Assembly: GCA_938092135.1 (NCBI GenBank)
Contig: CALLJL010000019.1
Span: 27,211 to 91,210, forward strand
Direction of reading: 5' to 3'
Source: an uncultured bacterium
Lineage (GTDB): Bacteria > Acidobacteriota > Aminicenantia > Aminicenantales > CALLJL01
DNA: 64,000 nucleotides
Part shown: positions 5,615-49,046 of the stretch, piece by piece
How the letters are laid out: every line of letters starts with the position of its first letter
Numbering within the stretch: position 1 is the stretch's first letter
Position numbers and translations under genes: made by a program
Notes under the pieces: model-generated
Seen by the model: only the letters and a program-made list of their open reading frames with translations
What the model was told of the DNA's origin: nothing
The model's database searches: none

Positions 5615-5619
5615 TTTCT

Positions 5620-5976: not shown

Positions 5977-5977
5977 C

Positions 5978-14326: not shown

Positions 14327-15610
14327 TTATATTCGACCAGTAACAAATCTCTTGATCCAGGAAAGAAAAAGGAAAAAGTAGGCATCAACAATCAAATCCA
14401 AACGAAAAAGAGGATTCCTTATTCCAGTTTTCAAGAAAAGCCACAAAACGAGACCTTTATGAGTCGGCGGACAGCCATCAATACGACGCTTCACCCTGGC
14501 TCGAACCTTACCCTCAATTTTTGTGCATTGACCAAGGAGAAGAAGCCGATCAGCCTCAATATCTCCTTTATAATGGCCAATAACTACGGTCCAATCAGGC
14601 ATTTTTCCCCAGAGATCTGGTTTTCTATCCTTAATCATGTAAAGCCAATCAAGAAAAACACCCTGACAACCTCCATAGCAATAGGGCTCCCCGTTAATAA
14701 CTTTAATTCGGGGATGAGCCTTTTCGAGGCGAATAAAACCAGTGGATAGATGACAGGTTTTCCTTTGAAGTTCCTCAAGGGTAATATCACCGCCAAGCTC
14801 AATCTCTTCGAGATTTAATGATCCGTAGCCTCTTCGTGAGGCCGCCACGAGATGACCGATCTGCTTCGGATCAAGATGGAAAAGATGACTGCAGACAACA
14901 TCATGGGCCAAGGGATTGGAAGCCATGATAATTGCCCCCAGATGATAACCGGGCTGGGTTAATTGATTTCCCCCGCAGGCAATTTCAATAGCGTCAGTGG
15001 CTATAAAGTCAGGATAGCCTACTTCAAGAAGATCAACTATTTTTTCATCGAGGTTATAGTTATGATTCCACATCCTTTCCCGATCACAGAGAAGACCAAT
15101 GTTAAGCTTTAAAGAAGCGGTTAAACCCTGGGAAAGAACATTGGTTTTGAGTTTGGGAGCATAGATGAGACAATCTCTCTCAACTATTTCCCTGGCTGTT
15201 TTTATTTTTTTATGGACTTGGCCTTTTTCAAGCCAGACTGTTTTCTTTTTTGATTCTTCTATGGCTATTAGCTTCAAAAAAGGCTTTTTCTTTAATTGAT
15301 GATAGCCAGCCCGTCGAAACATACGAGTCGTAGGCAGACCAGTGCCGCATTTTTCGGCTATAAAAATTTTAGCCTCGGGGCCGGCCATCCTCTTGATCGC
15401 TTCGATCAACCCCTCAAGAAACTCGACCCTCGTAAAAGCCGATGGTGCCACAAGATAATGGGCCATAACCACATTGGGCTTAATGGTAATCCTACCTTTA
15501 ATTTTGGGACCTACCCCGATTTCTTGAATACCCTCCTCAATTATTGACGAGATGAGGAAAGGATCATATTTTTCGGCTCGTCTTAGAATTACCTTTGGTC
15601 TATTTATCAT
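14327..15610 (-). CDS. DUF362-domain protein
   Basis: 427 aa. The N-terminal PKVILRRAEKYD...ITIKPNVV block is typical of DUF362, and the C-terminal tail is hydrophobic. Confidence 0.55.
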   Translation of the reverse strand: MINRPKVILRRAEKYDPFLISSIIEEGIQEIGVGPKIKGRITIKPNVVMAHYLVAPSAFTRVEFLEGLIEAIKRMAGPEAKIFIAEKCGTGLPTTRMFRRAGYHQLKKKPFLKLIAIEESKKKTVWLEKGQVHKKIKTAREIVERDCLIYAPKLKTNVLSQGLTASLKLNIGLLCDRERMWNHNYNLDEKIVDLLEVGYPDFIATDAIEIACGGNQLTQPGYHLGAIIMASNPLAHDVVCSHLFHLDPKQIGHLVAASRRGYGSLNLEEIELGGDITLEELQRKTCHLSTGFIRLEKAHPRIKVINGEPYCYGGCQGVFLDWLYMIKDRKPDLWGKMPDWTVVIGHYKGDIEADRLLLLGQCTKIEGKVRARVKRRIDGCPPTHKGLVLWLFLKTGIRNPLFRLDLIVDAYFFLFLSWIKRFVTGRI

Positions 15611-33789: not shown

Positions 33790-34914
33790 TTAAAACTTTA
33801 TCTCGACCAATTTAAGTTCATAGCTTCTGAAGCCAAGACCGATTTCTTCTCCGTATTTCAATTGAACCGACCAGTCAAGGTCATAACCTTCTTTCAGCAC
33901 ATCCCGTCGAGCTTCCTTTAAAACCAAGTCAACTGAAGCTTGGTCCAAGGCCACTGGATCATAGGAAGCCAGCATGCCTATATCCTCAACAATGGAGGGC
34001 TGATTTTTGGCCAAGCAATCGCAATCTTTAGTAATTTGCAAGAGGAAATTCAAAAAAACAATTTTTGGACCAAAATAATTCCTCAAAGCTAGGGCATATT
34101 CGACCATTTTCTCCTGAATCCGACGGCTGTCCTCATCCCAGCGCATCCTAATGGCCCCAACTTTGCAAATAACCAAACACTCCCCGCAACCAAGGCAGCG
34201 TTCATCAATAATTTTAGCCACTCCACTTTCCTGGATAATGGCTTGAGCTGGACAGTTAGTCAAGCAAAGGCCGCAATTGGTACAGTATTTAGGATTAACC
34301 CTCGGGTGGACCTCTGAGTGCTGTTCCAATTTGCCAGCCCTCGAAGCACAGCCCATACCTAAATTCTTAATGGCACAGCCGAAACCAGTCTGGACATGAC
34401 CGGTAAAATGACTCAGCACTATCAGAGCGTCGGCCAGAATAATTGATTTAGCAATCTTGGCTGATTTAATTCTCCGCCCATTTATTTTTATTTCCCCATC
34501 CTCAGCTCCAAGAAGACCGTCGGCAATGATCACTGGCAAGCCAGTGCCCTCATAGGTAAAACCATGTTCAGCTGCTTGCCGCAGATGATTGACTGCATTA
34601 GATCTTTCCCCCACATAAAGCGTATTAGAATCAGTAAAAAAGGCTCTGGAAGTCTTTTCTTTTATCCGCTCAATAATTCCTCTGAGCCAGGCCGGTTTGA
34701 TATAGCCTGTATTACCCTTCTCGCCAAAATGGATTTTCAGGCCGACAAAATCATTCTGGCTGATTCGGTCCTGAAAACCAGTCATGGAGTAAATCTTTTC
34801 AGCCTTAGCGGCAATAATTTCTGTTCCTTCTTCTCTTTTGGCCGGAATAAAATAAACCTGACTCTTCATTTCAGGAAGGTTTTTTCCCCTCAAGATATAG
34901 TTTTGCAGCTTCAA
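33790..34914 (-). CDS. DUF362-domain protein with C-terminal 2x[4Fe-4S] ferredoxin domain; a likely true start is Met16 at 34869
   Basis: A DUF362 N-domain is followed by CTNCGLCLTNCP and CLGCGECLVICK ferredoxin motifs. Starting at 34869 removes the 44-nt overlap with the aminotransferase gene. Confidence 0.65.
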   Translation of the reverse strand: MKLQNYILRGKNLPEMKSQVYFIPAKREEGTEIIAAKAEKIYSMTGFQDRISQNDFVGLKIHFGEKGNTGYIKPAWLRGIIERIKEKTSRAFFTDSNTLYVGERSNAVNHLRQAAEHGFTYEGTGLPVIIADGLLGAEDGEIKINGRRIKSAKIAKSIILADALIVLSHFTGHVQTGFGCAIKNLGMGCASRAGKLEQHSEVHPRVNPKYCTNCGLCLTNCPAQAIIQESGVAKIIDERCLGCGECLVICKVGAIRMRWDEDSRRIQEKMVEYALALRNYFGPKIVFLNFLLQITKDCDCLAKNQPSIVEDIGMLASYDPVALDQASVDLVLKEARRDVLKEGYDLDWSVQLKYGEEIGLGFRSYELKLVEIKF

Positions 34915-36025
34915 CTGCAGCGCCAGCTTTTAAAGGAAAATTCATAGAAATCATAGTCTTTTCGATGGCTTCGAGAGCAAAAATAACTTGTTCTTGAGAT
35001 AAATTACCCATGTGGCCCATCCTGAAAACCAGGCCAGCCGTCGGTCCAAGACCGCCGGCCACCACAATTCCCTTTTCATAGAGACTTTCCCTGAACCGCT
35101 TATCATTCATTCCTTCTTGATAGCGAACAACGGAGAGAGTGGGGGCAAGAAAAGCCTCATGGGTAAAAAAGGAAAAGCCCATTTCCCTAAGGGCAGCCCG
35201 AATAGCTCTGGCTATCAGCCGATGCCGCTCAAATCGTTTTTCCAGGCCCTCTTCCAAAACAATCTGCGTGGCCTCATAAAAGGCCCTAATTTCATTTACA
35301 CAGGGAGTAGAAAAATATTTTGACGGATCTTTCATGATGGGTAACCAGCGGAGCAAATCAGAATAATAGGCGGGTATTGACTTCATCGCTTTTCTTTTTT
35401 CCATGGCTCTTGGAGAAAGAACTAAGATGGAAAGACCAGGGGGAGCTCCAAAACACTTCTGGGCAGCCGTTAAAATAACATCAATCCCCCAAGAATCCAT
35501 GAATTCTTCCATTCCGCCGGTAGCGCAAACTCCGTCAACAATGAAAAGCTCTTCCCTGTTACGAAGCAAAGCGGCATATTGGTCAATGGGCGCACAAGTT
35601 CCGGTGGCCGTATCCACATGAGTTGCAATAACGGCTGCGTAAGAAGTTAGTTTTAACTTTTTCTCTAAATCTTCAGGGTAAATTCCCTGCCCCCATGGAG
35701 AGGCTAATATCTCGGCCTCAAGATCAAAGGCCCTAAAGATTTCGGCCATTCTTTCTCCGAAATAGCCGTGGGAAATAATCAGGGCCTTCTCGCCTCTGGC
35801 CACAGTATTTAGAACCGCCATCTCCATGGCTAAGGTTCCTGCCCCAGCGATGATAAAGGCTTCACCATTAGCGCAATCAACAATTTTCTTTAGATTTTCC
35901 ACAGCCCCCTTTAGTTCAGCCACCATCTCTGGCCCAACATGAGAAACTGTGGGCAAGGACAAGCGATTGATAATTCGGGGATGAACCGGACTCGGTCCGG
36001 GAATCAATAGCAACTTCTCTTTCAT
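34871..36025 (-). CDS. Class-V aminotransferase (serine-pyruvate / alanine-glyoxylate aminotransferase family)
   Basis: 384 aa, with LLIPGPSPV at the N-terminus and a PLP-lysine region (ILTAAQKCFGAPPG). Confidence 0.8.
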   Translation of the reverse strand: MKEKLLLIPGPSPVHPRIINRLSLPTVSHVGPEMVAELKGAVENLKKIVDCANGEAFIIAGAGTLAMEMAVLNTVARGEKALIISHGYFGERMAEIFRAFDLEAEILASPWGQGIYPEDLEKKLKLTSYAAVIATHVDTATGTCAPIDQYAALLRNREELFIVDGVCATGGMEEFMDSWGIDVILTAAQKCFGAPPGLSILVLSPRAMEKRKAMKSIPAYYSDLLRWLPIMKDPSKYFSTPCVNEIRAFYEATQIVLEEGLEKRFERHRLIARAIRAALREMGFSFFTHEAFLAPTLSVVRYQEGMNDKRFRESLYEKGIVVAGGLGPTAGLVFRMGHMGNLSQEQVIFALEAIEKTMISMNFPLKAGAAVEAAKLYLEGKKPS

Positions 36026-36130: not shown

Positions 36131-37459
36131 ATGAAAAAATCTATATATCTATCCTGGGTTCCGTTAATTTTGGTTTTATTAATCTTAATCTCTTTTTATT
36201 CAACCTTTTCCTATCCCCAAGCCTATGTCCCTACTGAAAGTAATCTTAAAGCTCGGGAATGGTTCCAGAAGGCTAAATTCGGACTTTTCATTCACTGGGG
36301 CCTATATTCTATTCTGGGAGATGGTGAATGGGTCATGTTTAATCGCCGAATTCCAGCTGCCGATTACGAAAAACTCACTCAATTTTTTAATCCCATAGCC
36401 TTTGATCCCAAGGAATGGGTTTCTTTAGCCAAGGAAGCTGGAATGCGCTACATTGTCATTACTTCAAGACATCACGATGGCTTTAGTCTTTTTGCGACAA
36501 AAGCTACAAATTACAATGTGGTTAAAGCTACACCCTATGGTCGTGATGTTCTTAAAATGCTGGCTGAGGAGTGCCAACGTCAGGGAATAAAACTCGGCTT
36601 CTATTACTCCCTCCTTGATTGGCATCATCCCGATTATGTTCCAAGAACACCTTCCGGCGAGCTCTTAAAGCGGACAGGTAAAGGCGATTGGTCCCGTTAC
36701 CTTGATTTTATGAAGACTCAGCTGAAGGAATTGCTGACCAATTATGGGGAAATTCTGTGCATCTGGCTTGATGGCCACTGGGACAGTCCCCAAGCCGACT
36801 GGAGCTATAACGAACTTTATAATCTTATCCATTCTCTCCAACCTCAGGTTCTAATCGGTAATAACCACCATACCTCTCCTTTTCCTGGCGAAGATTTTCA
36901 AATGTTTGAGAAAGATTTGCCAGGTGGTCGAACCCAGATATTTAATGTGGATCAGCCCGTAAGCTCTCTTCCCTTAGAGATGTGCGAAACCATTAACAAT
37001 TCCTGGGGTTTTAATATTAATGACCGCCATTATAAAAGCCCAAAAGAACTTATTCATCTTCTGGTTAAAGCGGCTGGCCACGATGCCAATCTTCTCCTTA
37101 ATGTAGGCCCAATGCCCAATGGTCGGATTCAACCTGAATTTATCGATCGATTGCTTGAAGTTGGACGGTGGCTCCGGGTCTATGGGGAATCTATTTATGG
37201 CACAAGAGGTGGACCTCTGCGGCCGCAGCCCTGGGGAGTCACGACGAGGAAAGAACGATTTGTCTTTGTCCATCTCCTTAATTATGAAGAACAGGCTCTC
37301 CTTCTTCCCGGATTTAATCTTCCCCTAAAGCAAGCCACTCTTCTGAAAAATGGCCAGAAAGTAAGCTTTCGCCTTCTGCCTGAAGGCCTGATTTTGAATC
37401 TACGGGGCCTTGAAAAAGACCCTATTGACACTGTCATTCGCCTCGAAATATCGCTTTGA
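36131..37459 (+). CDS. Alpha-L-fucosidase (GH29)
   Basis: 442 aa with a signal peptide and FGLFIHWGLYS...YIVITSRHHDGFSLF...GFYYSLLDWHHPDY, the GH29 catalytic-domain signature. Confidence 0.85.
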   Translation: MKKSIYLSWVPLILVLLILISFYSTFSYPQAYVPTESNLKAREWFQKAKFGLFIHWGLYSILGDGEWVMFNRRIPAADYEKLTQFFNPIAFDPKEWVSLAKEAGMRYIVITSRHHDGFSLFATKATNYNVVKATPYGRDVLKMLAEECQRQGIKLGFYYSLLDWHHPDYVPRTPSGELLKRTGKGDWSRYLDFMKTQLKELLTNYGEILCIWLDGHWDSPQADWSYNELYNLIHSLQPQVLIGNNHHTSPFPGEDFQMFEKDLPGGRTQIFNVDQPVSSLPLEMCETINNSWGFNINDRHYKSPKELIHLLVKAAGHDANLLLNVGPMPNGRIQPEFIDRLLEVGRWLRVYGESIYGTRGGPLRPQPWGVTTRKERFVFVHLLNYEEQALLLPGFNLPLKQATLLKNGQKVSFRLLPEGLILNLRGLEKDPIDTVIRLEISL

Positions 37460-37499: not shown

Positions 37500-39851
37500 A
37501 TGAAATTTAAAAAGTTATTTTTCCCTTTCCGAAAATTAATTTTTAATCTTTCTAGCCACCTCTTCCTTTTTCTTTTGGCGGCAAACCTATTACTCCTATC
37601 TTTCCTTGCCGCTGAATCATTCCGCCTGAATCAAATCAACCTTATTCCTCAGCCTTTCTCGATACAAAGGGGGAAAGGTACTTTAAATCTTAGCGAAAGA
37701 AGCAAAATTATTATCAGCCAAAGACATCACGAAGTCTTAGAGATAGCTAACGAATTTCAATCGAGGCTCCGTCAAGCTACTAGCTGGCCCTGGGAAATTA
37801 AAGATACGACGCAGATCAATTCACTTCGGGGGCATATCTTCCTCCGTTTACTGCCGACCAAAAAAACCTTGGCGCCGAAGGCTATGAATTAAGAATAAAT
37901 TCAAGCAATATCCTTATTGATGCTTCTACACCAGCCGGCCTTTTTTATGGTCTTCAAACTCTCTGGCAAGTATTCCCTGCTTCTTTTGAAAGCTTTCTCG
38001 CTCCATCTTCTAATCAACAGCTTGAAGGACAAAATAGACCTTTTTCTGCTTCCTTATCGCTTCCTTTGATCCATATCATCGATAAACCCCGCTTTCGCTG
38101 GCGGGGAGTTCATCTTGACTGTTCTCGTCACTTTTTCCCAAAGAGTGGATAATGAAATTGCTGGATGTGGCTTCAAGCTATAAGCTTAACACTTTTCATT
38201 GGCATCTTACCGATGATCAGGGCTGGAGAATTGAAATCAAAAAGTATCCTCGGCTCACCGAAATTGGCGCCTGGCGCCGGGAAACAATGGAAGATGGCCA
38301 GCCCTATGGTGGTTTCTATACTCAGGAAGAAATAAAGGAACTTATTGCTTATGCTCGCCGTCGCTTTATAACGATTGTCCCTGAAATTGAAATGCCTGGC
38401 CATTGTCTGGCTGCTCTCGCTGCTTATCCTGAATTGAGCTGCTCTGGCGGACCCTTTAAAGTTAGTGCCGAATGGGGAGTAATGAACGATGTTTTCTGCG
38501 CCGGCTCTGAAGAAACCTTTACCTTTCTGGAAAATGTCCTCAGTGAGGTTATAGAACTTTTCCCCGTGAATACATTCACATTGGTGGCGATGAGGTACCA
38601 AAGGTTCGCTGGCGAAACTGCGTTCGTTGTCAGGCCAGAATGAAAGCCGAGGGACTTAAAGATGAAAGCGAACTTCAGAGCTATTTCATTAGGCGAATTG
38701 AAACTTTTCTTAACAGCCAAGGAAGACGCTTAATTGGCTGGGATGAAATTCTTGAAGGAGGCCTGGCACCCCGCGCCACAGTTATGAGCTGGCGAGGTTT
38801 TTTCGGAGGAATTGCTGCGGCTCGAGCAGGTCATGATGTGATTATGAGTCCAACTTCCCATTGTTATTTTGATTATTATCAGGGCCAAGTGGATGAACCC
38901 AAAGCCATTGGGGGTTTTTTGCCGCTGGAAAAAGTCTATTCCTTTGAACCCATCCCACCTGAACTTAAGCCCGAAGAAGCTGCTCACGTTCTTGGAGCTC
39001 AAGCTAATCTCTGGACTGAATATATTAAAACCCCTGAACATGCTGAATACATGCTTTTTCCCCGCCTTCTTGCTTTAGCTGAGGTTATTTGGAGTCCGAA
39101 GAAGAAAGATTGGGCTGATTTTCAAAAGCGCCTTGTGGCCCATTATGACCGCCTGGCCTTTAAAGGGATTAGCTTCAGGGTCCCTCCGCCTGAGGGTATA
39201 GGTGGCCGAAAATGGTCAAAAGAAAAAATAAATTTAGTCCTCGTTACCCCTGTACCCGGAGCCAAAATTGTTTATACCTTAGATGGAGGATTTCCCAATG
39301 AAAATTCTTTAGTCTATACTTCTCCTTTAGAAATTTCGGGCAATGTAATTCTCCGCTCAGCCACCCTTCTTCCCAATGGTCGGATGAGTCATCCAGTCTC
39401 AATGTATTTTTTCCAGGTAGACGAAAATCTTAACGGTCTTGATTATGATTATTTCGAAGGCAAATGGGAAAAGTTACCCGATCTCGATAAAGAAAAGCCT
39501 CTCTTTTCAGGTGTAACCTATGATTTGACTTTGGATGGCCTTAAGACAGCTGAGGATTATTTTGCTCTTCGCTTTCGGAGCACACTTTATCTTGATCAGG
39601 AAGGAGAATATATTTTTTATACTCGCGCTGATGACGGCGTAAGATTGAAAATAAATGATTTGATTGTAGTTGATAATTGGGGTCTTTTCGGACAACGGGA
39701 ACTTAAGGGCCGCATCTATCTCAAGGCAGGTGGGCATCGCCTTCAGGTTGATTATTTTGAAAAAAGAGGCGGGCAGTATCTTGAAATCTTTATTGAGGGG
39801 CCAAGACTTCCCTATCAACCCATTCCTCCGGCCCGCCTTTTTAGGAATTAA
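37500..39851 (+). pseudogene. Beta-N-acetylhexosaminidase (GH20) with C-terminal PA14 domain, split into four ORF pieces by three -1 frameshifts at homopolymers
   Basis: The 37500..37892 ORF has a signal peptide and the GH20 N-domain (LIPQPFSIQRGKG). The next piece reads GAEGYELRINSS...RFRWRGVHLDCSRHFFP in frame 2 and ends at a stop at 38150. The 38152..38643 ORF reads KEWIMKLLDV...FHWHLTDDQGWRIEI...MPGHCLAALAAYP. The 38640..39851 piece reads PREYIHIGGDEV...NLWTEY and then the PA14 domain (GDDGVRLKINDLIVVDNWG...HRLQVDYFEKRGG). The frame changes fall at the A7 run 37860-66, at TTTTTCCCAAAG 38132-43 and at TTTTCCCC 38559-66. Confidence 0.7.
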
Positions 39852-40101
39852 TAAAAGGCCAGTTTTTCAAAGAAAAAGAATTCAAGGGTAAAAATTGAAA
39901 AGAAGAAATCAACAATTTTAATCAATAATTTTATCAGGAATACTGACCGGAAAATTTTCTGGTTAGACTTATTAAAAAAAGATTTTTAAAATAAAAGGCC
40001 CAGATGCAAGAAAAAATTAAAATTTTTAACTCCCTTAAGGACAAATTTTATTGAGCCGAAGGCGATAGTCTTTTTTCAAATTTTATTAAGAGGCAGGCCC
40101 A

Positions 40102-41571
40102 ATGAAACTATTGGTTATAATAATTAACCTTGAGATGATTTTGCAAAACAGGATGAATGAGAGTCGTGTTAAAAATATTTTAATAACTAAAATTCCAAAG
40201 AGGATTGGAGACACTCGTTTCATCGCCATGACCTTTGCTTTTCTTCTTTTGCCTCTTTTTAGCCCCCTTCTTTTACCAGCTCAATCTTCCCTTGAAGAAA
40301 TATCTTCCAAGGCGGCTGATTATTTTCGAATTCAAAATGAGCTTGGCCGTTTCTCAGGGGCTGTTCTTATTGGCTCCAAGGGAAAAATAATTTTTGAAAG
40401 AGGCTATGGGTTAGCCAATTATGAACTTCAGGTACCGATTACTCCACGGACCAAATTCCGTCTGGGCTCACTCACCAAGGCTTTTACTGCCGCCGCTATT
40501 TTACAGTTAGCTGAAAAGGGGAAGCTCAGTCTTGATGATCAGGTGGCCCGATACTTATCTAATTATCCCCAGGCTGAAAAAATAACTATTCATCATCTGC
40601 TTACCCATACCTCAGGTATTCCCAATTTTACTGCCTTGCCTGAATATCAGAAATTCAAGCTCAATCCGACGACTCTGGACCGAACAATCAATCTCTTTCG
40701 ACAATTGCCCCTTGAATTTGAGCCAGGAACAAAATTTAGTTACAGCAACTCTAATTACATTCTTCTTACAGATATTATTGAAAAGGTTTCAGGCAAAAGT
40801 TATGCCGACTATTTGCGGGAAAATATCTTTCTTCCTCTAAATATGTTAGATACCTGCTACGACGATCCAAATAGGATTATAAAGTACCGTTCCCGAGGTT
40901 ATAGCCTTCGAAATGGTGATTTGATCAATGCCCCCCACATTGACATGTCTGTACCAGCTGGGGCTGGAGGTCTTCTTTCAACCGTAGAGGACCTCTTTGC
41001 CTGGGATCAGGGCCTTAGAAGTGAGCGGATTTTGACCGCCGCCTCCTTAGAAAAAATGTTCACTCCTTTTCTGAATGGCTATGCCTATGGCTGGGAGATA
41101 AAAAAAATTAATGGTCGCCTGATCGCCCAACACGGGGGGAGAATTGAAGGCTTTTTAAGTCAAATGGTCCGTTTCCTTGATGATGACCTTTGCTTAATTA
41201 TCCTAAGCAATTTTGATTTTGCCCCTCTTTCCCAATTCATAGAAGACATGCTTTCCCTCTTTTTAGGAAAACCGGTCACCTGGCCAAAAGAAAGAAAGGC
41301 TATTTCACTTCCGCCCGAAATTTTTAATCTCTATTGTGGTGAATATGAGTTCGCACCGAATTTATTAATTAAGATTTTTAGGGAAGGGAATCGTTACTGG
41401 GCTCAGGTCATCGGACAACCAAAGCTGGAAATTCTGCCTGAAAGTAAGACCAGTTTTTTTGTCCGTCTCATTGATGCCCAAATAAATTTTATCCTTGATT
41501 CAGAAGGAAAGCCTAATGCTCTTCTTCTTATTCAAGGAGGAAAAACTCACGAGGCCAAGAAGATTCGTTAG
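40102..41571 (+). CDS. Beta-lactamase-fold serine hydrolase (class C / AmpH / esterase-like); a likely start is Met43 at about 40228, preceding the signal peptide
   Basis: The SxxK motif is in RLGSLTKAF, the YxN motif in YSNSNY, and a D/H-x-GG motif is present (AQHGGR). A signal peptide reads MTFAFLLLPLFSPLLLPAQS. Confidence 0.75.
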   Translation: MKLLVIIINLEMILQNRMNESRVKNILITKIPKRIGDTRFIAMTFAFLLLPLFSPLLLPAQSSLEEISSKAADYFRIQNELGRFSGAVLIGSKGKIIFERGYGLANYELQVPITPRTKFRLGSLTKAFTAAAILQLAEKGKLSLDDQVARYLSNYPQAEKITIHHLLTHTSGIPNFTALPEYQKFKLNPTTLDRTINLFRQLPLEFEPGTKFSYSNSNYILLTDIIEKVSGKSYADYLRENIFLPLNMLDTCYDDPNRIIKYRSRGYSLRNGDLINAPHIDMSVPAGAGGLLSTVEDLFAWDQGLRSERILTAASLEKMFTPFLNGYAYGWEIKKINGRLIAQHGGRIEGFLSQMVRFLDDDLCLIILSNFDFAPLSQFIEDMLSLFLGKPVTWPKERKAISLPPEIFNLYCGEYEFAPNLLIKIFREGNRYWAQVIGQPKLEILPESKTSFFVRLIDAQINFILDSEGKPNALLLIQGGKTHEAKKIR

Positions 41572-41573
41572 GA

Positions 41574-42701
41574 TCAACGAAGAATCTTGAGGAGACAATT
41601 AATAACAGTCTGCATTTGCCTTTGCTGTTTCTCCATTGAATGGAGAAGCTTAAACTGGGTTCTGGCCCGGACAAGATTGTGCTCAGGATATTTTGTTTTA
41701 AAATAAATATCACCTTCAAGGTAATCGGTTAAAAAACGCAGTCCGATAGTAAAAGTGATGAGCGGGCCAGCCATAAAGAGCAATTCTCTTTCGGGCTCGA
41801 CCAGGAGATCAGCAGTTTCAGAAAGATAACCCTCGGCTACGGCCTCAAAGAGATCCATGTCCATAGCCACAGCGTCGAGATCGGTTTCATCTTCAGCCGC
41901 CGCACAGGTCCCTGTTCGAACTAAGTCACCAAAATCATAAAGGGGTGAACCGGGCATGGTCGTATCCAAATCAATGACACATATGCCTTTGCCAGTTTCA
42001 TCATCAAAAAGAACGTTGTTGATTTTAGTGTCATTGTGACTGACCCTTACAGGCAACCTCCCTGAACTTAAGCCATCGGTCACTAGAGAAACAAGGGATT
42101 GCCTGCTTAAAGCAAAGGAAATAGTATCAGCTGCCCTGGCCTTTCTTTCCGGAGAAGCCTGCTCGATGGCCAGTAGAAAACGTTCAAAACGGCGGGGGGT
42201 GTGATGGAAATAGGGAATGGTTTCATGCAATTCCTGAGGCGAAAGATCAGCAATGAGTTTTTGAAAAAAACCAAAGGCTCGGCCAGCCTCAAAGGCCTGC
42301 TCAGGAGTAGTCGCAGTTTCAATGGTGTGACAGCCGTCAACATAATGATAAAGTCGCCAGTATTCTCCCTGGGGGGTCCGGTAATAACTTTGACCACTTT
42401 GGGTTAAAACTGGCCTGATACTTTTTTTTGATGTTTTTTCTCCTTCAAGCTCAATCAATTTCCTGTTAACATGTTGAGCGACCTTTTCCCAGTTGGCCAT
42501 CATCAATTCGGGCTCCTGAAATACGCGGGTATTAATCCGTTGCAGAGTATATTTTTTTATTTTTTCATCAGTTTTAATTTCGACAAGAAAGGTATCGTGG
42601 ATATGGCCTTGGCCAAGAGGGGAAAAACAAATAAGTGAACCCTCAACAATAAAGTTGGCCATAACTAATTCTATTTCCTTTTTCGTCAATTTCTTAACCA
42701 T
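41574..42701 (-). CDS. N-acetylhexosamine 1-kinase-like anomeric sugar kinase (NahK/AmgK, APH phosphotransferase fold)
   Basis: 375 aa. From memory of B. longum NahK, several blocks align closely. [12 protein letters not shown] matches [28 protein letters not shown] matches [34 protein letters not shown] matches [46 protein letters not shown] matches [28 protein letters not shown]. Confidence 0.7.
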   Translation of the reverse strand: [375 protein letters not shown]

Positions 42702-42722
42702 ATTTTTTGTTTTTGTTTTTAT

Positions 42723-43685
42723 TTATTTCTTATTTCTCATTTCCAAATTCAACCTTAAATTTTCAGGGTAATAACCTTGAGCCACGAGATCACCAATTCC
42801 CTTCCTCACTACCGGCAAATCTTCCGCATAGGTTATGCCAAGCCATTTTTCATCAGTGGGTAGGCAAAAAACTTTAACTTTTCTTTGACGGAGTAATTCA
42901 CCAATAAATTCTGGAATGAGAAATTCAGCCTTAGGATCATGGCCATATTTATTAAGGAAATCGAAAAAACCAACTTGCAGCCAATTGAAAATGGAGGGAT
43001 CAAAACCCCAGAAATTCATTGAGACCACTTCCTCACCATCAAGATCAAGCCAGCCTCCGTCTTCGAGACGAGCTCTGGCTCCCCCTTCAGTTTTTTCAAT
43101 ATGCTTCATTTCCTGGATATCGCTTATTTCATCACCTTGAAGTTGACATAGGCCTCGGGAAACAGGACCAAAATCGGAAAGAGTTTGTTTTAAACGATAC
43201 CCAACTAAGGCATATTCCGGCTTTAAATCTTTTTCCCCAGCTTTAGTACTCGACCGCACCAGAAATTCAACCATTACCTCAAAGGCCCTCCGACCATAAA
43301 AATCATCAGCATTGATTACCGCGAAAGGTTCCTGCACCCTGTCTCTGGCCACCAGGAGAGCATGGCCTGTTCCCCAGGGTTTGCTCCGCTGTAAATTCTC
43401 AGGCCAGCCCATAGGTAAAAGCGAATCGAGTTCCTGATAAATATAATCGACCTCAAAAAAACCTTCCCAGAAATGACCGATAATTGCCCTAAAATCAGCT
43501 TCAATTTCGCGGCGAATAACAAAGATTATTTTTTTGAAACCAGCTTGAAAGGCGTCATACAGAGAATAATCAATAATGGTTTCGCCCTTTGGACCAACAT
43601 GACTAAGTTGTTTTATACCACCAAAGCGACTACCAATGCCGGCAGCAAGAACAATTAAGGAAATTTTAGCCTTTTCTTTCACCAT
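42723..43685 (-). CDS. Sugar-1-phosphate nucleotidyltransferase (NTP_transferase fold; UDP-HexNAc pyrophosphorylase candidate)
   Basis: 320 aa. The N-terminal LIVLAAGIGSRFGGIKQL is a G-x-G-x-R nucleotide-binding motif. The gene lies immediately upstream of the NahK-like kinase on the same strand, with a 21-nt gap. Confidence 0.65.
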   Translation of the reverse strand: MVKEKAKISLIVLAAGIGSRFGGIKQLSHVGPKGETIIDYSLYDAFQAGFKKIIFVIRREIEADFRAIIGHFWEGFFEVDYIYQELDSLLPMGWPENLQRSKPWGTGHALLVARDRVQEPFAVINADDFYGRRAFEVMVEFLVRSSTKAGEKDLKPEYALVGYRLKQTLSDFGPVSRGLCQLQGDEISDIQEMKHIEKTEGGARARLEDGGWLDLDGEEVVSMNFWGFDPSIFNWLQVGFFDFLNKYGHDPKAEFLIPEFIGELLRQRKVKVFCLPTDEKWLGITYAEDLPVVRKGIGDLVAQGYYPENLRLNLEMRNKK

Positions 43686-43897
43686 TTTTAAAAATGCCTG
43701 TTAAAAATGCCCTGGCTAAAAATTATTTTTTCCAAATAAGTCTTCCCAAGGCAACAATTGTCGCCTAAAAGGCAAGCGACTCTTTAATCGATTTTTCTTT
43801 ATAACATAGCATGAAAAAAAGAGTCAAAAAATTAAAATTGCTGAAGATAAAGATTTTTGTTATAATTGCCAATCAAAAAATAAAGGGAGGTAAGAAT

Positions 43898-44137
43898 ATG
43901 GGAAAATATTTGGCCATTATCTTGGGTATTGTGGCTATGGCCGCAGGGATTTTTCTGGTTATTTTTGTCTGGTGGCGAGAATTTTATGAACTCGTCTTCG
44001 GCTGTATTCCGCCGCTTTTATTTTTTGGTGGCCTCATTGCGGTTATTGCCGGAATTAGCAGCATCAAGGATGCCATCCGCACCAAGAAGCTTGAGGAGGA
44101 GGCTAAAAAAGAAGCTGAAAAAAAAGAAGCTAACTGA
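43898..44137 (+). CDS. Small two-TM membrane protein with K/E-rich C-terminal tail
   Basis: An RBS AGGGAGG lies 6 nt upstream of the ATG at 43898. Two hydrophobic helices are followed by KKLEEEAKKEAEKKEAN. The listed ORF 43811.. is the same frame with an upstream start that is unlikely to be used. Confidence 0.4.
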   Translation: MGKYLAIILGIVAMAAGIFLVIFVWWREFYELVFGCIPPLLFFGGLIAVIAGISSIKDAIRTKKLEEEAKKEAEKKEAN

Positions 44138-44356
44138 TCAAAATAGAAATATTCTTTTTTTCTAACCACCTCCCTTTAAAATTTAAGATATCATCAGAAA
44201 CCTATTTAAATTTAATCTAATTTTTTTGTTTGAGGTTTGGCTTTTAGAAAAATTTCAAAATAAAGCTTTCTAGTCTTTAAGTTTTTTTCTTTCTTGAAAT
44301 TTACAGTAAAAAGAAAGGATTTTTTTCTATTGACAGGACCTTAGAAATTTAGTAGT

Positions 44357-44379
44357 TTGTAATCAGCTTACAAATTACA
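44357..44379. promoter_or_regulatory. Operator-like cluster of TGTAA half-sites, TTGTAAT-cagc-TTACAA-ATTACA, between a TTGACA -35 (44330-35) and the RBS of the RHH gene
   Basis: TGTAA occurs at 44358-62, and its reverse complement TTACA occurs at 44368-72 and 44375-79. The ATG of the RHH ORF is at 44391, preceded by AGGAGG. Confidence 0.4.
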
Positions 44380-44390
44380 GGAGGCCAGCG

Positions 44391-44753
44391 ATGGATGGCG
44401 AGAAAGAAAAGGACCAGATAGCGGCTAAAATTGATGAATTTGAGTCCCAGGTAGAAAAATTAACAATAAAGCCTACCTCTTCGATTAAAAAAGTTATCGA
44501 TCAGGCTCTGGCCAATCGAAATATAGTCCTGACCATCCGGGTTAACGAAGAAAGCAACAAAAAACTCAACATGCTGGTTGATGCCGGCCTGTTTAAAAGT
44601 CGCTCTGAAAGCGCTGCCTTCTTGATTGAAGAGGGTATTCGTAGCCAAGCTCCGCTATTTAAAAAAATTACAGAACGACTTGAAAAAATCGATCGTATCC
44701 GCGAAGAACTCAAAAATATTGTCACTGAGGAAATGGAAAAGGCCAAAGATTAA
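44391..44753 (+). CDS. Ribbon-helix-helix (Arc/MetJ/CopG-like) putative transcriptional regulator
   Basis: 120 aa. The segment VLTIRVNEESNKKLNMLVDAGLFKSRSESAAFLIEEGI fits the RHH beta-strand plus two-helix pattern, with the typical (S/T)RSE cap. A strong RBS is present. Confidence 0.5.
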   Translation: MDGEKEKDQIAAKIDEFESQVEKLTIKPTSSIKKVIDQALANRNIVLTIRVNEESNKKLNMLVDAGLFKSRSESAAFLIEEGIRSQAPLFKKITERLEKIDRIREELKNIVTEEMEKAKD

Positions 44754-44793
44754 AAAGATTTTCATCGGCCTGGGTTCGGAGAGAAAGTCAACC

Positions 44794-45225
44794 TTGGTTC
44801 GATTAATCAATTTCATTTTTCCCCTTTCTTTAACCCTTCTTACCTTTACTTCAAGAAATATTGAAAAGGCTTTTCTCCAGAACAATGCCTCCATCCTGGC
44901 CGCTATCTGTCAACCTAATTCTATTATCCAGGTTTCCCTCCCCGAGCCTATCGGTTTCTCTGATGTCCTTACTCCCGGCCAAATAAAAGTTTTTTTTGAA
45001 AGAATTTTTGCCCAATTTCCCACCTTTGAATTCTTTATTGAATCTCCCTTTCCTTTGTTTTTATCAAGCGACCGCTGGTTCATTCGAGCCCGTTGGTCTT
45101 TCCTGGAAAAAAAGAGTCTCGAGCAACATGTTCTCAGAATTTATTTCCAGGTTCAAGCAACAGGAAAACTTCAGAAAAGAGGAGGCGAATGGAAAATAAT
45201 CGAGATTCGGGCCGAAAAGATTTAA
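44794..45225 (+). CDS. Hypothetical NTF2-like (DUF4783/SnoaL-like) protein. The start is uncertain: TTG at 44794, or an earlier ATT/ATC codon.
   Basis: This is the same frame as the listed 44626..45225 ORF. The C-terminal half (FERIFAQFPTFEFFIESPF...RWFIRARWSF...GEWKIIEIR) looks like an NTF2-fold cone. It overlaps the kinase start by 37 nt. Confidence 0.3.
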   Translation: MVRLINFIFPLSLTLLTFTSRNIEKAFLQNNASILAAICQPNSIIQVSLPEPIGFSDVLTPGQIKVFFERIFAQFPTFEFFIESPFPLFLSSDRWFIRARWSFLEKKSLEQHVLRIYFQVQATGKLQKRGGEWKIIEIRAEKI

Positions 45226-48200
45226 GGCCGGAATTTTCCATCAAGACGGTCAGACCTCTCTTGTGGCTTTCCCTGGCCTTGGCTTTCATCAGCGGTCTCT
45301 GTTTTTTGGGATCAGCCTTAATTCCCAACGGGCATTTAAAATATCAAACTTCAGCTAGCTTAGAGGCCCTTAAAAAACAGGAACGGTCCATTAAGAATCA
45401 ATTTGAAAGCCTTATTTCCAACCTCAAATATAAGGGTCATTCCCTAGCCACGACTTTGCCCCAGGAAATACCAGAAATTCATCAGGCGCTTTTCTCTCTA
45501 CATCTTAATCCTGAAATCGAGGGGGTAGCTTATTTAATTGAAGACTCAATTATTCTTTGGCGCGGCCAGATGATTCCTGCATCTTTGCTTCCGCCCGCTG
45601 ATAAAATTACTCATGTTATTCGTTATAAGGCCAGCATTTATCTCGTCGCTTCTTTTCCGGTGAGGGAAAAAGAAAAGTTAGTAATCCTACATCTTCTTTC
45701 TTTTCAACCTCCCCTAACCACTTCCCTACTCAGCTCCTATTCTTTTATTAAAGCAAAGGATCTGACTAATGCCCTTATTGAATTTTATAGTGAGGAAGAT
45801 GATGTCTCTGGCTTTGAAAAAATCTTTTTTCGCCATCACGACGAATATATCAGCCAGCCGAGATCGAGAACCGATATATTGACCATCTTTTTCCCCCTCC
45901 GCAATGAGGCTCGAAGAATTGTGGCCACAGTCAATCTTCGTTCAGTTAACCCAGCTTTTAGCCTCAGTGAGCAAAGAAGCCGTTGGCTGCTGGCTGCCTG
46001 GATCAATCTTTTTCTATCTTTTTCTTTTTTCACCTTAATGGGATTATTTGCTTGGAAAAAGTCTAAATATCAATCGACTGGCAATCTCATTATTTTTCTT
46101 TTTGGGCTTATTTCCCTCCGACTGGTTTTTCTACCCCTTAAAACTTATTTTGATATTAAAACCTCCCTGTTTTCGCCCGGAAAAGCGTCTATTCCTGCTC
46201 TTAACCACCTTTTAGCCTCACCCCTTGATATTTTTTTGACCTCGGCATTGATTTTCGCCTGTCTCTTTTTTCTTATTTACAATTGGCGTCATATCTTTCC
46301 TCTCGACACGCCAAGCCCATCTAGGGGAAGTAAAAAAGGCTTGGCTCTTATCCTCGTTATTACCTCGTCCCTTCCTCTTTATCTTTTTTATAAAATCGCG
46401 CTCGCTTTCATCCTTAATAGCAATCTAAACCTAATCAAAATCTCTCCTTTCTCGTCCTCCCTCTTACTTCTTTTAGCCCTTAGCTTCATTTTTCTGACCG
46501 CAATTTTAATAAGCGGAATTTTTTTAATTGTGGCCAGAAAGCTCTGGTTTCACCCTTTTCCCCTCTGGCTTATTTTTATTCCTCTACTTTTGCTTTTTAT
46601 CCTCTTTTATGGTAAAGCCCAATTATCTCTGGTCAAAGGCTTAGTCCTTTCTCTCATTTTCTTTGGAATTTATTTAGGGCTCTTTAAACCCCCTTTTCGC
46701 TTCCGATCAGGTTATCGGCTAACCCTTCTGGCGTTATCCTCAATCTTTTTCTATATAATTCTTGCCTCTGGCACCTCAATAAAAGAAACAATCTTGACAG
46801 AAAGCTATCTCCGGAATTCAATTATTTCCCTTGAAAATTGGGCTCAGTACTTGCTCCAGGAATCACTTCCATCCATTGACAATGAAAAAGAAGCCATTCT
46901 GGATTGCCTGCTCAAGGGAGATCAAAACGATCTGGCCGCTTATCTCTGGAGGAAAACCTCTCTAGCCCGTTGGAACTGGTATTCAAGCCTTGAAATAAGC
47001 CGACCTAACGGCGAGGTATTATCCCGTTATTCCCTGAATCTACCCTTTTTTTTCCGGACTCCTTTTTCCTTTGAGCCGAGTCAGGATTGGTCACTTTTGA
47101 GGGTGAGTCTTCCTTTGCCGGGAAAGGTAGCAGATTTTCTTATTGCCTATCGGGATTTTGAGCATGGAGGAAATAAGGTCGGGCGGCTATCTCTTTATGT
47201 CCTTTTAAACGAAGAAATCCTTCCTTTCCTTTATTCAGCTATTCCTTATTTTGACCTCCTGCGCTTTCCCTCTGTTCCATCTTTAAAGGAGTTTAATTTC
47301 AGCTTGGCTATTTTTAAAACCGATGGAGAAATTATTTTTAATCCGGCCCGGCTAACCACCGGAATACCGGTGGAAATTCTAAAAAGATTGAAGGATCATC
47401 CTGGAAATCCCTTTTGGTCTATCCTGTCTGACCGCCGTAGGAAATTTCGGGTCTTTTATTTTGGCCATGGCGAAAAGATTGTGGCTCTACTCTGGCCTTT
47501 ACCTGGATTCATCTCGGTGGCTGTGGGCTATCTAAAAATCCTGTTGATACTGACAATTTTGATTTATTTACCTTTATTTATTAGCGATATGATCACCGGA
47601 AGGCGCCGTCTGGCCTCCCTTTTCTGGGCTTTTTCAAGCCGTATTTATGCTTCCTTTATAGCCATAATTCTTATTATGCTCATCCCCTTTATTTTTCTTA
47701 TTAATAGCTTTTTCAACCGCCTGGCCACAGAGAGGTTTAGGGAAAAGGCGGAGATTCAGGCTCAGGTTGCCCGAAACATCATCGAAGACTTTCTCGTCCT
47801 GCAGGAGGAGGAAACTCCCTTTGTTCCTGTTCAGGACCTTGTTCATTGGATAAGTACAGCGATTAATAATGATGTCAATATTTATCAAGGCGGGGTTCTT
47901 GTCGCTTCCAGCCGCCAGGAGTTTTTTGACCTGGGCCTTTTGCCTGATTACCTTGAAGGCGAAATTGCCTATCGTCTTAACTATGAACGGCAACCCTATG
48001 TTGTTTGGAGAAAAAAAATCGGCAATTACTCGTTTCAAACTCTGACCCTTCCTTTATATCTAAACAATTCGAATTTCTTTATTACTCTCTTTTTCCCTTT
48101 TGAACGTGAAGAGATAGGCCGAGCTCGGGAGCAGTTACTTGAATTTCTGGCTTTTATCTCTGCCTTTTCTCTAATTCTTATTTCTCTCTTCGCCCGCAGT

Positions 48201-49046
48201 ATAGGCTCCCTTGTTATAAATCCCATCCGAAAGCTCCTTCTGGCCACAAAAGAAGTAAGCTCAGGCAATCTCGATATTCGCATTGACCATCATGGTCACG
48301 ATGAGATGCAAACCCTCATCGATGGTTTTAACCGCATGGTTCAGAGTCTCAAGCAGCACGAAAAAGAACTTGCAGAAATGAGCAAAAAGGCAGCCTGGGC
48401 CGAAATGGCTCGAAAAGTTGCCCATGAGGTCAAAAATCCCTTGACTCCCATAAGACTTTCCGCTGAACACCTTTTGCATGTCTATGAAGAAAGACCTCAA
48501 GAAATCGGGCCAGCTTTAAAGGAAGCGGTCGCCTATATAATTAAAGAAGTAGAAAACCTGCGACGTTTGGCCCAAGACTTTCTGACCTTTTCCCGGGAAG
48601 GCCCCCTCCATAAAACTTACTTTGAGCTTAATCAATTATTGAAAGAAATAACTTCTCCCTACGAAAGAATTCTGGCCGATCGTATCAACTTTGAATTTAA
48701 TTTAGCCTGTCCCTTAACTTTAATGGGTGATCAGGAGAAACTTAAAATCGCTTTCCGCAATCTTATTGTCAATGCTATTGAAGCAATTAAAGGCAAAGGA
48801 ATAATTAAAATTCAAGCTACCCGTGAAGGCTCCTTCTTTAATATTGAAATAATCGATAATGGTGAAGGCATGGATGAAACCACTTTAAGACTTATCTTTG
48901 AACCCCATTTTTCCACCAAAGATCTGGGGACAGGGCTTGGCTTACCGATCTCGAAAAAAATAATTGAAGATCATGGTGGTCAAATAATCATTAGAAGCTC
49001 TCCAGGCCAGGGAACTTGCGTTAAAATTGTCTTACCTGCGGGCTAA
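45189..49046 (+). CDS. Large multi-TM sensor histidine kinase (NtrY-like H-box; a ~1000-aa polytopic sensor region, then HAMP, HisKA and HATPase_c domains), orphan
   Basis: The true start is probably ATG 45189, with AGAGGAGG 4 nt upstream; the listed 45093 is an upstream in-frame Met. At least 12 predicted TM helices fall into two blocks separated by soluble loops. The HAMP region reads KLLLATKEVSSGNLDIRID, the H-box reads MARKVAHEVKNPLTPIRLS, and the N/G1/G2 boxes read NLIVNAIEA...IDNGEGM...GTGLGLPISKKIIEDHGG. Confidence 0.85.
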   Translation: MENNRDSGRKDLRPEFSIKTVRPLLWLSLALAFISGLCFLGSALIPNGHLKYQTSASLEALKKQERSIKNQFESLISNLKYKGHSLATTLPQEIPEIHQALFSLHLNPEIEGVAYLIEDSIILWRGQMIPASLLPPADKITHVIRYKASIYLVASFPVREKEKLVILHLLSFQPPLTTSLLSSYSFIKAKDLTNALIEFYSEEDDVSGFEKIFFRHHDEYISQPRSRTDILTIFFPLRNEARRIVATVNLRSVNPAFSLSEQRSRWLLAAWINLFLSFSFFTLMGLFAWKKSKYQSTGNLIIFLFGLISLRLVFLPLKTYFDIKTSLFSPGKASIPALNHLLASPLDIFLTSALIFACLFFLIYNWRHIFPLDTPSPSRGSKKGLALILVITSSLPLYLFYKIALAFILNSNLNLIKISPFSSSLLLLLALSFIFLTAILISGIFLIVARKLWFHPFPLWLIFIPLLLLFILFYGKAQLSLVKGLVLSLIFFGIYLGLFKPPFRFRSGYRLTLLALSSIFFYIILASGTSIKETILTESYLRNSIISLENWAQYLLQESLPSIDNEKEAILDCLLKGDQNDLAAYLWRKTSLARWNWYSSLEISRPNGEVLSRYSLNLPFFFRTPFSFEPSQDWSLLRVSLPLPGKVADFLIAYRDFEHGGNKVGRLSLYVLLNEEILPFLYSAIPYFDLLRFPSVPSLKEFNFSLAIFKTDGEIIFNPARLTTGIPVEILKRLKDHPGNPFWSILSDRRRKFRVFYFGHGEKIVALLWPLPGFISVAVGYLKILLILTILIYLPLFISDMITGRRRLASLFWAFSSRIYASFIAIILIMLIPFIFLINSFFNRLATERFREKAEIQAQVARNIIEDFLVLQEEETPFVPVQDLVHWISTAINNDVNIYQGGVLVASSRQEFFDLGLLPDYLEGEIAYRLNYERQPYVVWRKKIGNYSFQTLTLPLYLNNSNFFITLFFPFEREEIGRAREQLLEFLAFISAFSLILISLFARSIGSLVINPIRKLLLATKEVSSGNLDIRIDHHGHDEMQTLIDGFNRMVQSLKQHEKELAEMSKKAAWAEMARKVAHEVKNPLTPIRLSAEHLLHVYEERPQEIGPALKEAVAYIIKEVENLRRLAQDFLTFSREGPLHKTYFELNQLLKEITSPYERILADRINFEFNLACPLTLMGDQEKLKIAFRNLIVNAIEAIKGKGIIKIQATREGSFFNIEIIDNGEGMDETTLRLIFEPHFSTKDLGTGLGLPISKKIIEDHGGQIIIRSSPGQGTCVKIVLPAG

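Follow-up and report, generated by a model that had tools for sequence, protein, structure and literature searches.

Which step of metabolism is served by a kinase resembling the bifidobacterial N-acetylhexosamine 1-kinase (NahK), when its gene directly follows that of a sugar nucleotidyltransferase (NTase) in a bacterium of the Aminicenantales? This question is raised by a stretch of 64,000 nucleotides (nt) of contig CALLJL010000019.1 (positions 27,211 to 91,210 of the forward strand), hereafter called the window, which stems from an uncultured host whose nearest relatives are metagenome-assembled genomes of Candidatus Aminicenantes. The comparisons described below suggest, with a probability of roughly 0.7, that the two genes constitute an operon for a two-step activation, in which an N-acetylhexosamine (HexNAc) would be converted to HexNAc-1-phosphate (HexNAc-1-P) and then to uridine diphosphate (UDP)-HexNAc. 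Within this reading, we infer the sugar specificity of both enzymes, the use of uridine triphosphate (UTP) as nucleotide and the physiological direction of the route in the host. The pair consists of the following elements.

42723..43685, minus strand: NTase gene, first of the pair, 320 amino acids (aa), ATG start
42702..42722, minus strand: A-rich spacer of exactly 21 nt, from the stop codon of the NTase gene (TAA) to the ATG of the kinase gene
41574..42701, minus strand: gene of the NahK-like kinase, second of the pair, 375 aa, ATG start

A previous reading made from the sequence only had placed the kinase 21 nt downstream of a 320-aa NTase on the same strand, and both open reading frames (ORFs) were confirmed with these boundaries. 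A sequence check between the two genes revealed no terminator-like hairpin in the spacer, nor was an obvious Shine-Dalgarno sequence seen in it. Since the spacer is free of a terminator, the genes are presumably co-transcribed. No excess of promoter- or terminator-like sites over shuffled sequence was seen around the pair, an Rfam scan of positions 40000-45200 yielded nothing relevant, and the G+C content around the pair is that of the remaining window. Inspection of the translations showed no signal-peptide-like N-terminus in either protein.

The kinase

The kinase contains the Pfam domain APH (PF01636; 63.8 bits) and is not covered by any model of NCBIfam. Against solved structures it gave three matches only, all of them bifidobacterial NahK (4OCU, 4WH1, and 4OCJ), to which residues 13-371, i.e., the full length, align with E-values of 2e-84 to 7e-82 and with 44% identity across 341 aligned residues. 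Two active-site motifs are located as follows.

42024..42038, minus strand: catalytic loop HNDTK of the kinase (residues 222-226), identical in NahK
41964..41972, minus strand: DLD of the kinase (residues 244-246), Mg-binding aspartate position; the enclosing IDLDT (243-247) is identical in NahK

In an alignment of 14 kinase homologues from different phyla, H222, D224, K226, and N229 of the loop region as well as D244, L245, and T247 are invariant, and the DFGD stretch (256-259) together with a long C-terminal block of 28 residues is nearly identical to NahK. Both characteristics by which NahK (EC 2.7.1.162) can be recognized, namely full-length homology and an APH domain with the H-N-D-T-K-x-N-N loop and the IDLD aspartate, are therefore present in one protein. 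The earlier impression of near-identity to NahK holds for such blocks, including HNDTK and DLD, but not for the protein as a whole, as the overall identity of 44% shows. A NahK homologue with 39% identity to the bifidobacterial enzyme, BT4240 from Bacteroides thetaiotaomicron, was found by experiment, in a study of 2025, to phosphorylate both N-acetylgalactosamine (GalNAc), which is strongly preferred, and N-acetylglucosamine (GlcNAc) at O1, and growth on GalNAc requires this enzyme (PMC11992087). Because of the homology to NahK, the conserved blocks and the activity of BT4240, the kinase of the window is predicted very likely to be a HexNAc anomeric kinase.

The nucleotidyltransferase

In the NTase, Pfam detects NTP_transferase (PF00483) with 28.7 bits (cut-off 21.2), restricted to the N-terminal 140 residues. 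No cut-off of NCBIfam is reached: the best model, TIGR03992 (Arch_glmU), yields 27.4 bits vs. a cut-off of 292.1, and the GalU model TIGR01099 yields 21.2 vs. 326.8. A full-length match was obtained with PDB entry 3PNN (E 6e-81 and 44% identity with the single sequence), a structural-genomics entry from Porphyromonas gingivalis W83 that is described as 'conserved domain protein / glycosyltransferase', has no assigned function and is the only solved member of this NTase family. When a family profile built from 13 sequences was used against the PDB sequences to E<=10, 3PNN was found at E 4e-123 and GalU came next at ~1e-8 over the N-terminal ~125 residues only, with no match to any chain of RmlA, GlmU, or MurU. 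A clustering of the NTase with glucose-1-phosphate thymidylyl- or uridylyltransferases, named beforehand as the outcome that would speak against a HexNAc pathway, was thus not what these searches returned. Similarly, hhalign aligned the family with Escherichia coli GalU at a probability of 91% over the N-terminal 115 columns, the alignments with E. coli RfbA (14%) and GlmU (10%) being of low probability.

An AlphaFold2 model of the NTase (pLDDT 91.8) was compared with solved structures by Foldseek, giving TM-scores of 0.87/0.92 over the whole chain of 3PNN and of about 0.6 across about 320 columns with RmlA and GalU (E about 1e-14). RmlA/GalU-type chains of 271-302 residues matched the model across its whole length, and no beta-helix or acetyltransferase domain is present in it. 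Judged by this model, the NTase has an ordinary full-length sugar-1-phosphate nucleotidyltransferase fold and a size that is normal for it. MurU of Pseudomonas putida has 223 aa; the observation from the sequence-only reading that the NTase is about 100 aa longer than MurU is therefore correct as a length but is no anomaly, since the RmlA/GalU-type chains are themselves 271-302 residues long. The conserved motifs of the NTase map to the following positions.

43608..43649, minus strand: signature LAAGIGSRFGGIKQ (G-x-G-x-R ... K), nucleotide/phosphate-binding loop, from the family alignment; aligns with the GalU loop
43359..43382, minus strand: KPWGTGHA loop (residues 102-109), counterpart of G-L-G-H-A in GalU; K102, P103, G105, T106, H108, and A109 invariant
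43293..43316, minus strand: INADDFYG (residues 124-131), acidic metal/ribose-binding position, aligned to 'LPD' of GalU; all eight residues invariant

Within the signature, A14, A15, G16, G18, R20, G23, K25, and Q26 are invariant in the family alignment. Also invariant is Q84, which lies directly past a beta-strand and is aligned, in the low-probability hhalign alignment, with Q83 of RfbA, the thymine/uracil-reading glutamine in RmlA. All invariants of the family were found in the NTase (LAAG-G-R..K-Q, Q-E, R-K-P-G-T-H-A, INADDFYG, S-M-N, E..P, and W-G-T-Y), and so were the features of the sugar-1-phosphate nucleotidyltransferase superfamily, namely the G-x-G-x-R-x(n)-K loop, the acidic motif and a GT-A-like alpha/beta fold. 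About 15 residues inserted ahead of the GTGHA loop are specific to the family.

INADDFYG served as the pattern in searching for further members. When 1.84 billion cluster representatives were searched exhaustively with HMMER, 1,819 clusters were obtained at E<=1e-30, counted at 50% identity. The source annotations of these proteins range from 'nucleotidyltransferase', 'NDP-sugar pyrophosphorylase family protein', 'dTDP-glucose pyrophosphorylase', and 'UTP-glucose-1-phosphate uridylyltransferase' to 'hypothetical', and a function of the family is therefore not settled. On these sequence comparisons, the NTase is assigned to a separate, unnamed family, here called 3PNN-type, whose nearest characterized relative is GalU.

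Three more specific assignments were considered and rejected. Identity with GalU is contradicted by the NCBIfam score given above and by PDB and hhalign matches that are limited to about 115-130 N-terminal residues. An enzyme of the GlmU or archaeal ST0452 type is contradicted by the TIGR03992 score, the hhalign probability of 10% and the missing beta-helix domain. As to MurU, neither a model in NCBIfam (E<=1e-3) nor a chain in the PDB (E<=1 with the single sequence, E<=10 with the profile) was matched, and the length of 320 aa differs; MurU, with its PDB entries 4Y7T-4Y7V, is assumed to be present in the searched libraries.

Some members of the NTase family have further architectures, a part of which are perhaps gene-calling artefacts (P0159, P0122, P0237, and P0169). 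These comprise a tandem duplicate of a divergent NTase domain (537 aa), an NTase with a ParB-like C-terminal region (625 aa), a flavodoxin/4Fe-4S N-terminal region followed by the NTase (555 aa), and a coiled-coil-like N-terminal extension (448 aa).

Linkage of the two genes across genomes

The association of NTase and kinase was followed from both sides. On the NTase side, one genome per GTDB species was scanned, and 67 of the 80 loci returned, having at least 1.2 kb on both sides, were counted. A strong NahK-like match was present beside the NTase in 21 of these 67 species loci (about 31%), on the same strand in all 21, mostly directly downstream and in a few cases directly upstream. The phyla with such a pair are Verrucomicrobiota, Lentisphaerota, Bacteroidota, Acidobacteriota, Chloroflexota, Spirochaetota, and Firmicutes. 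On the kinase side, metagenomes were scanned, and 49 of the 80 loci returned, having at least 1 kb on both sides, were counted. Here, the NTase was present in 20 loci (41%), again without exception on the same strand, and in 19 of the 20 it was located directly upstream at a distance of 0-51 nt.

The closest relative is a metagenome contig (L081), with 64% identity for the kinase and 60% for the NTase. This contig is syntenic with positions 34.9-47 kb of the window and carries a fucosidase, a hexosaminidase, a serine hydrolase, the kinase, the NTase, and a sensor kinase; its NTase and kinase genes (5039-7128) overlap by 4 nt, as compared to the 21-nt spacer in the window. Moreover, natural fusions with the NTase as N-terminal and the kinase as C-terminal part (671 and 675 aa) were among the best matches of the NTase. 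A search started from one of these fusions gave at least 110 fusion clusters at 90% identity, with lengths of 646-679 aa, both Pfam domains, 97-98% coverage and identities down to 50%, and some of them comprise hundreds to thousands of member sequences (examples are P0200, P0211, P0278, and P0337, and the loci L166-L169). The two halves are 43% (NTase) and 41% (kinase) identical to the proteins of the window. The genes adjoining the fusions suggest Firmicutes as hosts.

Because the adjacency of NTase and kinase recurs in many phyla and is also present as gene fusions, it is far beyond chance. A fusion is classical evidence for two enzymes acting on consecutive steps, which therefore applies to the NTase and the kinase as well; the product of the kinase would then be the substrate of the NTase. 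Genetic coupling of the kind expected for a kinase-plus-NTase salvage module was accordingly found at three levels, as conserved co-oriented adjacency, as the 4-nt overlap and as fusions.

Further genes beside the pair in other genomes

On three contigs (L166-L168), a gene for a GalE-type NAD-dependent epimerase overlaps the end of the fusion gene by 4 nt and precedes a Glucosamine_iso (NagB-like) gene; on a fourth fusion contig, the GalE-type epimerase alone follows the fusion. The cluster of GalE-type epimerases was also present in 15 of the 80 metagenome kinase loci, and 11 of these 15 are among the 25 loci that contain the NTase as well. In three Bacteroidota loci (L023, L039, and L063; Labilibaculum and Draconibacterium), a PGM/PMM-type phosphohexomutase is encoded between NTase and kinase. 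This enzyme could interconvert GlcNAc-1-phosphate (GlcNAc-1-P) and GlcNAc-6-phosphate (GlcNAc-6-P) and thereby connect NagA/NagB catabolism with the UDP-HexNAc route. Further genes that recur nearby encode GH20 hexosaminidases, with orthologues after the NTase-kinase pair in L018, L019, and L042, GH109 enzymes (alpha-N-acetylgalactosaminidase family), PIG-L deacetylases, ROK/LacI/AraC regulators and MFS/SSS transporters. This set of neighbours fits an uptake of HexNAc and its conversion via a UDP-sugar intermediate. The presence of GalE, NagB and phosphohexomutase in related operons points to a catabolic, Leloir-like use at least as much as to a bypass of GlmS/GlmM/GlmU.

Proposed pathway

In the proposed pathway, the substrate would probably be freed by the neighbouring secreted GH20 enzyme, together with the GH29 enzyme, from fucosylated HexNAc-containing glycans and then be taken up. 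The cytoplasmic NahK-like kinase would phosphorylate GlcNAc and/or GalNAc at O1 in an adenosine triphosphate (ATP)-dependent manner, and the NTase would convert HexNAc-1-P and UTP to UDP-GlcNAc or UDP-GalNAc and pyrophosphate. UDP-HexNAc might directly enter cell-envelope synthesis, which would represent a salvage without the need for GlmS/GlmM/GlmU. In the presence of a GalE-type epimerase, a phosphohexomutase and NagB, an alternative route could lead to GlcNAc-6-P and glycolysis; such a catabolic route would be a pyrophosphorylase-type analogue of the Leloir pathway or of the lacto-N-biose/galacto-N-biose (LNB/GNB) pathway. The sequence-only reading had likewise let kinase and NTase act in sequence towards UDP-HexNAc, and this proposal is supported by the NahK homology, the co-orientation across phyla, the 4-nt overlap, the fusions and the GalE neighbour.

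A wider proposal would be that the 3PNN-type family is the missing bacterial UDP-HexNAc pyrophosphorylase and that, together with GalE and with NahK-type kinases that are encoded next to it or fused to it, it provides a widespread Leloir-like salvage and catabolism of GalNAc and GlcNAc, of the pyrophosphorylase type, in at least seven phyla. For this generalization, we regard the chances as about even. If true, the reaction that follows BT4240 in gut Bacteroides would be catalysed by the 3PNN-type NTase, which may also replace the absent GalT in the galactose metabolism of Bacteroidota.

Surroundings of the pair in the window

The pair is convergent with three genes of the plus strand.

36131..37459, plus strand: GH29 alpha-L-fucosidase (Pfam Alpha_L_fucos, 2.7e-102); synteny in L081, 80% identity
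37500..39851, plus strand: GH20 beta-N-acetylhexosaminidase with PA14 and a signal-peptide-like hydrophobic N-terminus (Glyco_hydro_20, Glyco_hydro_20b, CHB_HEX_C_1, and PA14 on pieces)
40102..41571, plus strand: beta-lactamase-family serine hydrolase with DUF3471 (Pfam Beta-lactamase, 2.8e-68)

The GH29 and GH20 genes belong to one small glycan-degrading island, and the GH20 enzyme is the likely source of free HexNAc. The serine hydrolase gene is convergent with the kinase gene, two bases (41572-41573) separating their stop codons. Its best similarities in NCBIfam are to D-aminopeptidase and AmpH, far below cut-off, and its synteny is kept only in L081. The other window ORFs scanned encode housekeeping or unrelated functions, such as SecA, IMPDH, pantothenate synthesis, the Pst phosphate transporter, a large sensor kinase, acyl-CoA metabolism, and others. 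None of glmS, glmM, glmU, nagA, and nagB was among them.

Two small divergent ORFs are located upstream of the pair, at 44391-44753 and 43811-44137 (both plus strand), with 89% and 82% identity in L081. The 120-aa product gave no Pfam match and by eye resembles a ribbon-helix-helix DNA-binding protein, and the 108-aa product is a small membrane protein; one of the two ORFs may be a local regulator. Further along, a sensor histidine kinase of 1317 aa is encoded at 45093-49046 (plus strand), for which Pfam domains (HAMP, HisKA, and HATPase) were found only in the last ~280 residues, the N-terminal ~1000 residues being polytopic with no Pfam match. An ORF of 199 aa (44626-45225) overlaps the start of this gene, the true start of which is uncertain, or there is a further frameshift. 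Elsewhere in the window, two DUF362 proteins are encoded on the minus strand (14327-15610 and 33790-34914), one of them with 4Fe-4S ferredoxin motifs, and the second of these genes shares 44 nt with the end of a class-V aminotransferase gene (34871-36025).

Alternative explanations

Several observations weigh against the proposed HexNAc pathway. About 60-70% of the NTase loci lack a kinase within 6 kb. In Bacteroidales, the NTase (L055, L070, L075, and L078) has no adjacent kinase, adjoins genes for aldose-1-epimerase, GalE, PMI or MFS, and is conserved at 80-88% across families. Since most loci are devoid of a kinase and the Bacteroidales neighbours differ, the NTase family may have a broader or different primary substrate, e.g., galactose-1-phosphate (Gal-1-P), and the Bacteroidales copies suggest a core function; they might be the Gal-1-P uridylyltransferase that is missing in Bacteroidota. 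UTP as the nucleotide is suggested by two observations only, the similarity to GalU and the epimerase neighbour, and the searched literature contained no biochemical data on any member of the 3PNN-type family. In the window itself, neither GalE nor a mutase, NagA/B, a transporter or a regulator was found beside the pair, and no homologues of the recurrent neighbours (GalE, mutase, PIG-L, GH109, ROK, MFS, and SSS) were found in its 64 kb. Finally, three frameshifts of 1 nt each (near 37856-37871, 38140, and 38565), all of them at homopolymer runs, divide the GH20 gene into several ORFs. The intact GH20 orthologue in L081 has 839 aa, to which the window pieces are mostly 76-86% identical, with ~50% at the N-terminal end, and the frameshifts represent either assembly indel errors or a very recent pseudogene.

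The most serious rival is that the NTase is a hexose-1-phosphate uridylyltransferase, either GalU-like or a UDP-sugar pyrophosphorylase of broad specificity, that acts mainly on glucose-1-phosphate or Gal-1-P, with HexNAc-1-P as a side substrate at most. NTase and kinase would then be linked by belonging to one sugar-nucleotide regulon rather than by strictly consecutive reactions. GalU as the closest characterized relative, the roughly two thirds of the NTase loci that are without a kinase, and the Bacteroidales copies, the neighbours of which were listed above and the conservation of which is as for a core enzyme, are all in line with this possibility. The same applies to the reported absence of GalT from at least one Bacteroidota genome that contains GalK and GalE (PMC5507952). 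However, NTase and kinase are fused in more than 100 clusters, which is difficult to account for if the NTase does not use the product of the kinase. In addition, the similarity to GalU is limited to the nucleotide-binding N-terminal part (21 vs. a cut-off of 327 bits), and the neighbours GH20, GH109, PIG-L and NagB indicate HexNAc. A hexose-1-phosphate enzyme is thus considered unlikely, although it retains more weight than the alternatives that follow. A broad-specificity UDP-sugar pyrophosphorylase accepting both Gal-1-P and HexNAc-1-P would reconcile all observations.

It is considerably less probable that the pair serves peptidoglycan recycling of the AmgK/MurU type, with the kinase acting at O1 of N-acetylmuramic acid (MurNAc), in addition to GlcNAc, and the NTase forming UDP-MurNAc. 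The logic of the two enzymes would be the same, and the convergent neighbour of the pair is a beta-lactamase-family, D-aminopeptidase-like hydrolase. Nevertheless, this neighbour is kept only in the closest relative L081, the kinase is 44% identical to NahK over its full length, the NTase, about 100 aa longer than MurU, gave no match to it (NCBIfam; PDB at E<=10), and related operons carry GalE, GH109, GH20, and NagB, but not MurQ, AnmK or NagZ-type genes. The AmgK/MurU reading was therefore rejected on both sequence and context.

A similarly small chance is given to an NTase that uses HexNAc-1-P with deoxythymidine triphosphate (dTTP), cytidine triphosphate, guanosine triphosphate or ATP to form a non-UDP HexNAc donor for a specialized glycan. 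The Foldseek comparison, in which the NTase model matches the dTTP-using RmlA as well as GalU, would allow for this. By contrast, the profile similarity is to the UTP-using GalU and not to RmlA, no glycosyltransferase cluster is linked, and GalE-type epimerases, which to our knowledge act on UDP-sugars in all characterized cases, follow the pair. A fortuitous adjacency in the host, with enzymes of unrelated pathways, has nothing specific in its favour apart from the missing regulator or transporter beside the pair in the window and was rejected as effectively refuted by the widespread fusions, with order and strand being conserved in 45 independent loci and the genes overlapping by 4 nt in L081.

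Novelty and significance

A literature search found no paper on 3PNN, its NTase family, or a natural NahK-NTase pair or fusion. The design, an anomeric kinase combined with a nucleotidyltransferase, is already known from AmgK/MurU, from Fkp and from chemoenzymatic NahK+GlmU cascades. The novelty lies in which family the NTase belongs to and in how broadly this family is coupled to NahK, subject to the uncertain position of a GlcNAc-1-P uridyltransferase from Capnocytophaga canimorsus (GlmUCc, see below). For the window alone, the result is modest, as two genes of ordinary appearance receive a functional prediction that is well supported.

Mucins, N-glycans, chitin, and cell walls contain GlcNAc and GalNAc as their main amino sugars. 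The processing of HexNAc-1-P outside bifidobacteria is not settled, and a kinase-coupled NTase family offers a concrete candidate for the step after BT4240. The pathway also bears on predictions of GlcNAc auxotrophy that are derived from an absence of glmS, glmM or glmU. Furthermore, natural single-chain kinase-pyrophosphorylase enzymes would be useful for the one-pot synthesis of UDP-GlcNAc and UDP-GalNAc.

Comparison with known systems

With AmgK/MurU of Pseudomonas and Tannerella, the pair would share a two-step design, in which an APH-family anomeric kinase precedes a sugar-1-phosphate uridylyltransferase and de novo UDP-sugar synthesis is circumvented. In contrast to that system, the kinase of the window is NahK-like, the NTase has no match to MurU, and the context is one of glycan foraging and not of muropeptide recycling. 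GalU, RmlA, the N-terminal domain of GlmU and archaeal enzymes of the ST0452 type have the fold and the N-terminal signature in common with the NTase, which differs from them in scores far below the curated cut-offs, in the lack of an acetyltransferase domain and in the insertion of about 15 residues.

GlmUCc (Ccan_15070) of C. canimorsus was described as a monofunctional GlcNAc-1-P uridyltransferase, and no kinase forming GlcNAc-1-P from GlcNAc is named in that paper (PMC4358021). This is exactly the activity proposed for the NTase; judged by its description, GlmUCc may belong either to the 3PNN-type or to a MurU/GlmU-N-like family. GlmUCc may or may not be the first characterized member of the 3PNN-type family, which is the main uncertainty regarding novelty.

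For the natural fusions, kinase and pyrophosphorylase in one chain for one-pot sugar-nucleotide salvage are also known from Fkp of Bacteroides fragilis, a bifunctional L-fucokinase/GDP-fucose pyrophosphorylase, and from engineered NahK-GlmU fusions. Domain families and their order are different in these proteins, and in the window two separate proteins are encoded.

BT4240 resembles the kinase as a NahK homologue outside bifidobacteria, a likeness that was likewise assessed from its published description. It differs in being encoded in a mucin polysaccharide utilization locus with no adjacent NTase, and the corresponding paper names no enzyme for the next step of GalNAc-1-phosphate (PMC11992087). 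NahK itself (LnpB), from the LNB/GNB pathway of Bifidobacterium longum, is homologous to the kinase over its full length and has the same catalytic motifs. For this NahK, as for BT4240, an ATP-dependent phosphorylation of GlcNAc/GalNAc at O1 has been demonstrated.

Of the lnpABCD cluster that defines the LNB/GNB pathway, the window contains the NahK homologue only, with GH112, GalT, GalE, and the LNB ABC transporter not being found among the window ORFs scanned. Still, the bifidobacterial LNB/GNB route (lnpBCD, with LnpC being GalT and LnpD being GalE) is the closest described pathway. It also proceeds from HexNAc-1-P to UDP-HexNAc and on to 4-epimerization, and in relatives a GalE-type epimerase follows the pair. 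The difference lies in the second step, where an NTase of the pyrophosphorylase type takes the place of the HIT-family GalT, a swap that parallels the Isselbacher variant of galactose metabolism.

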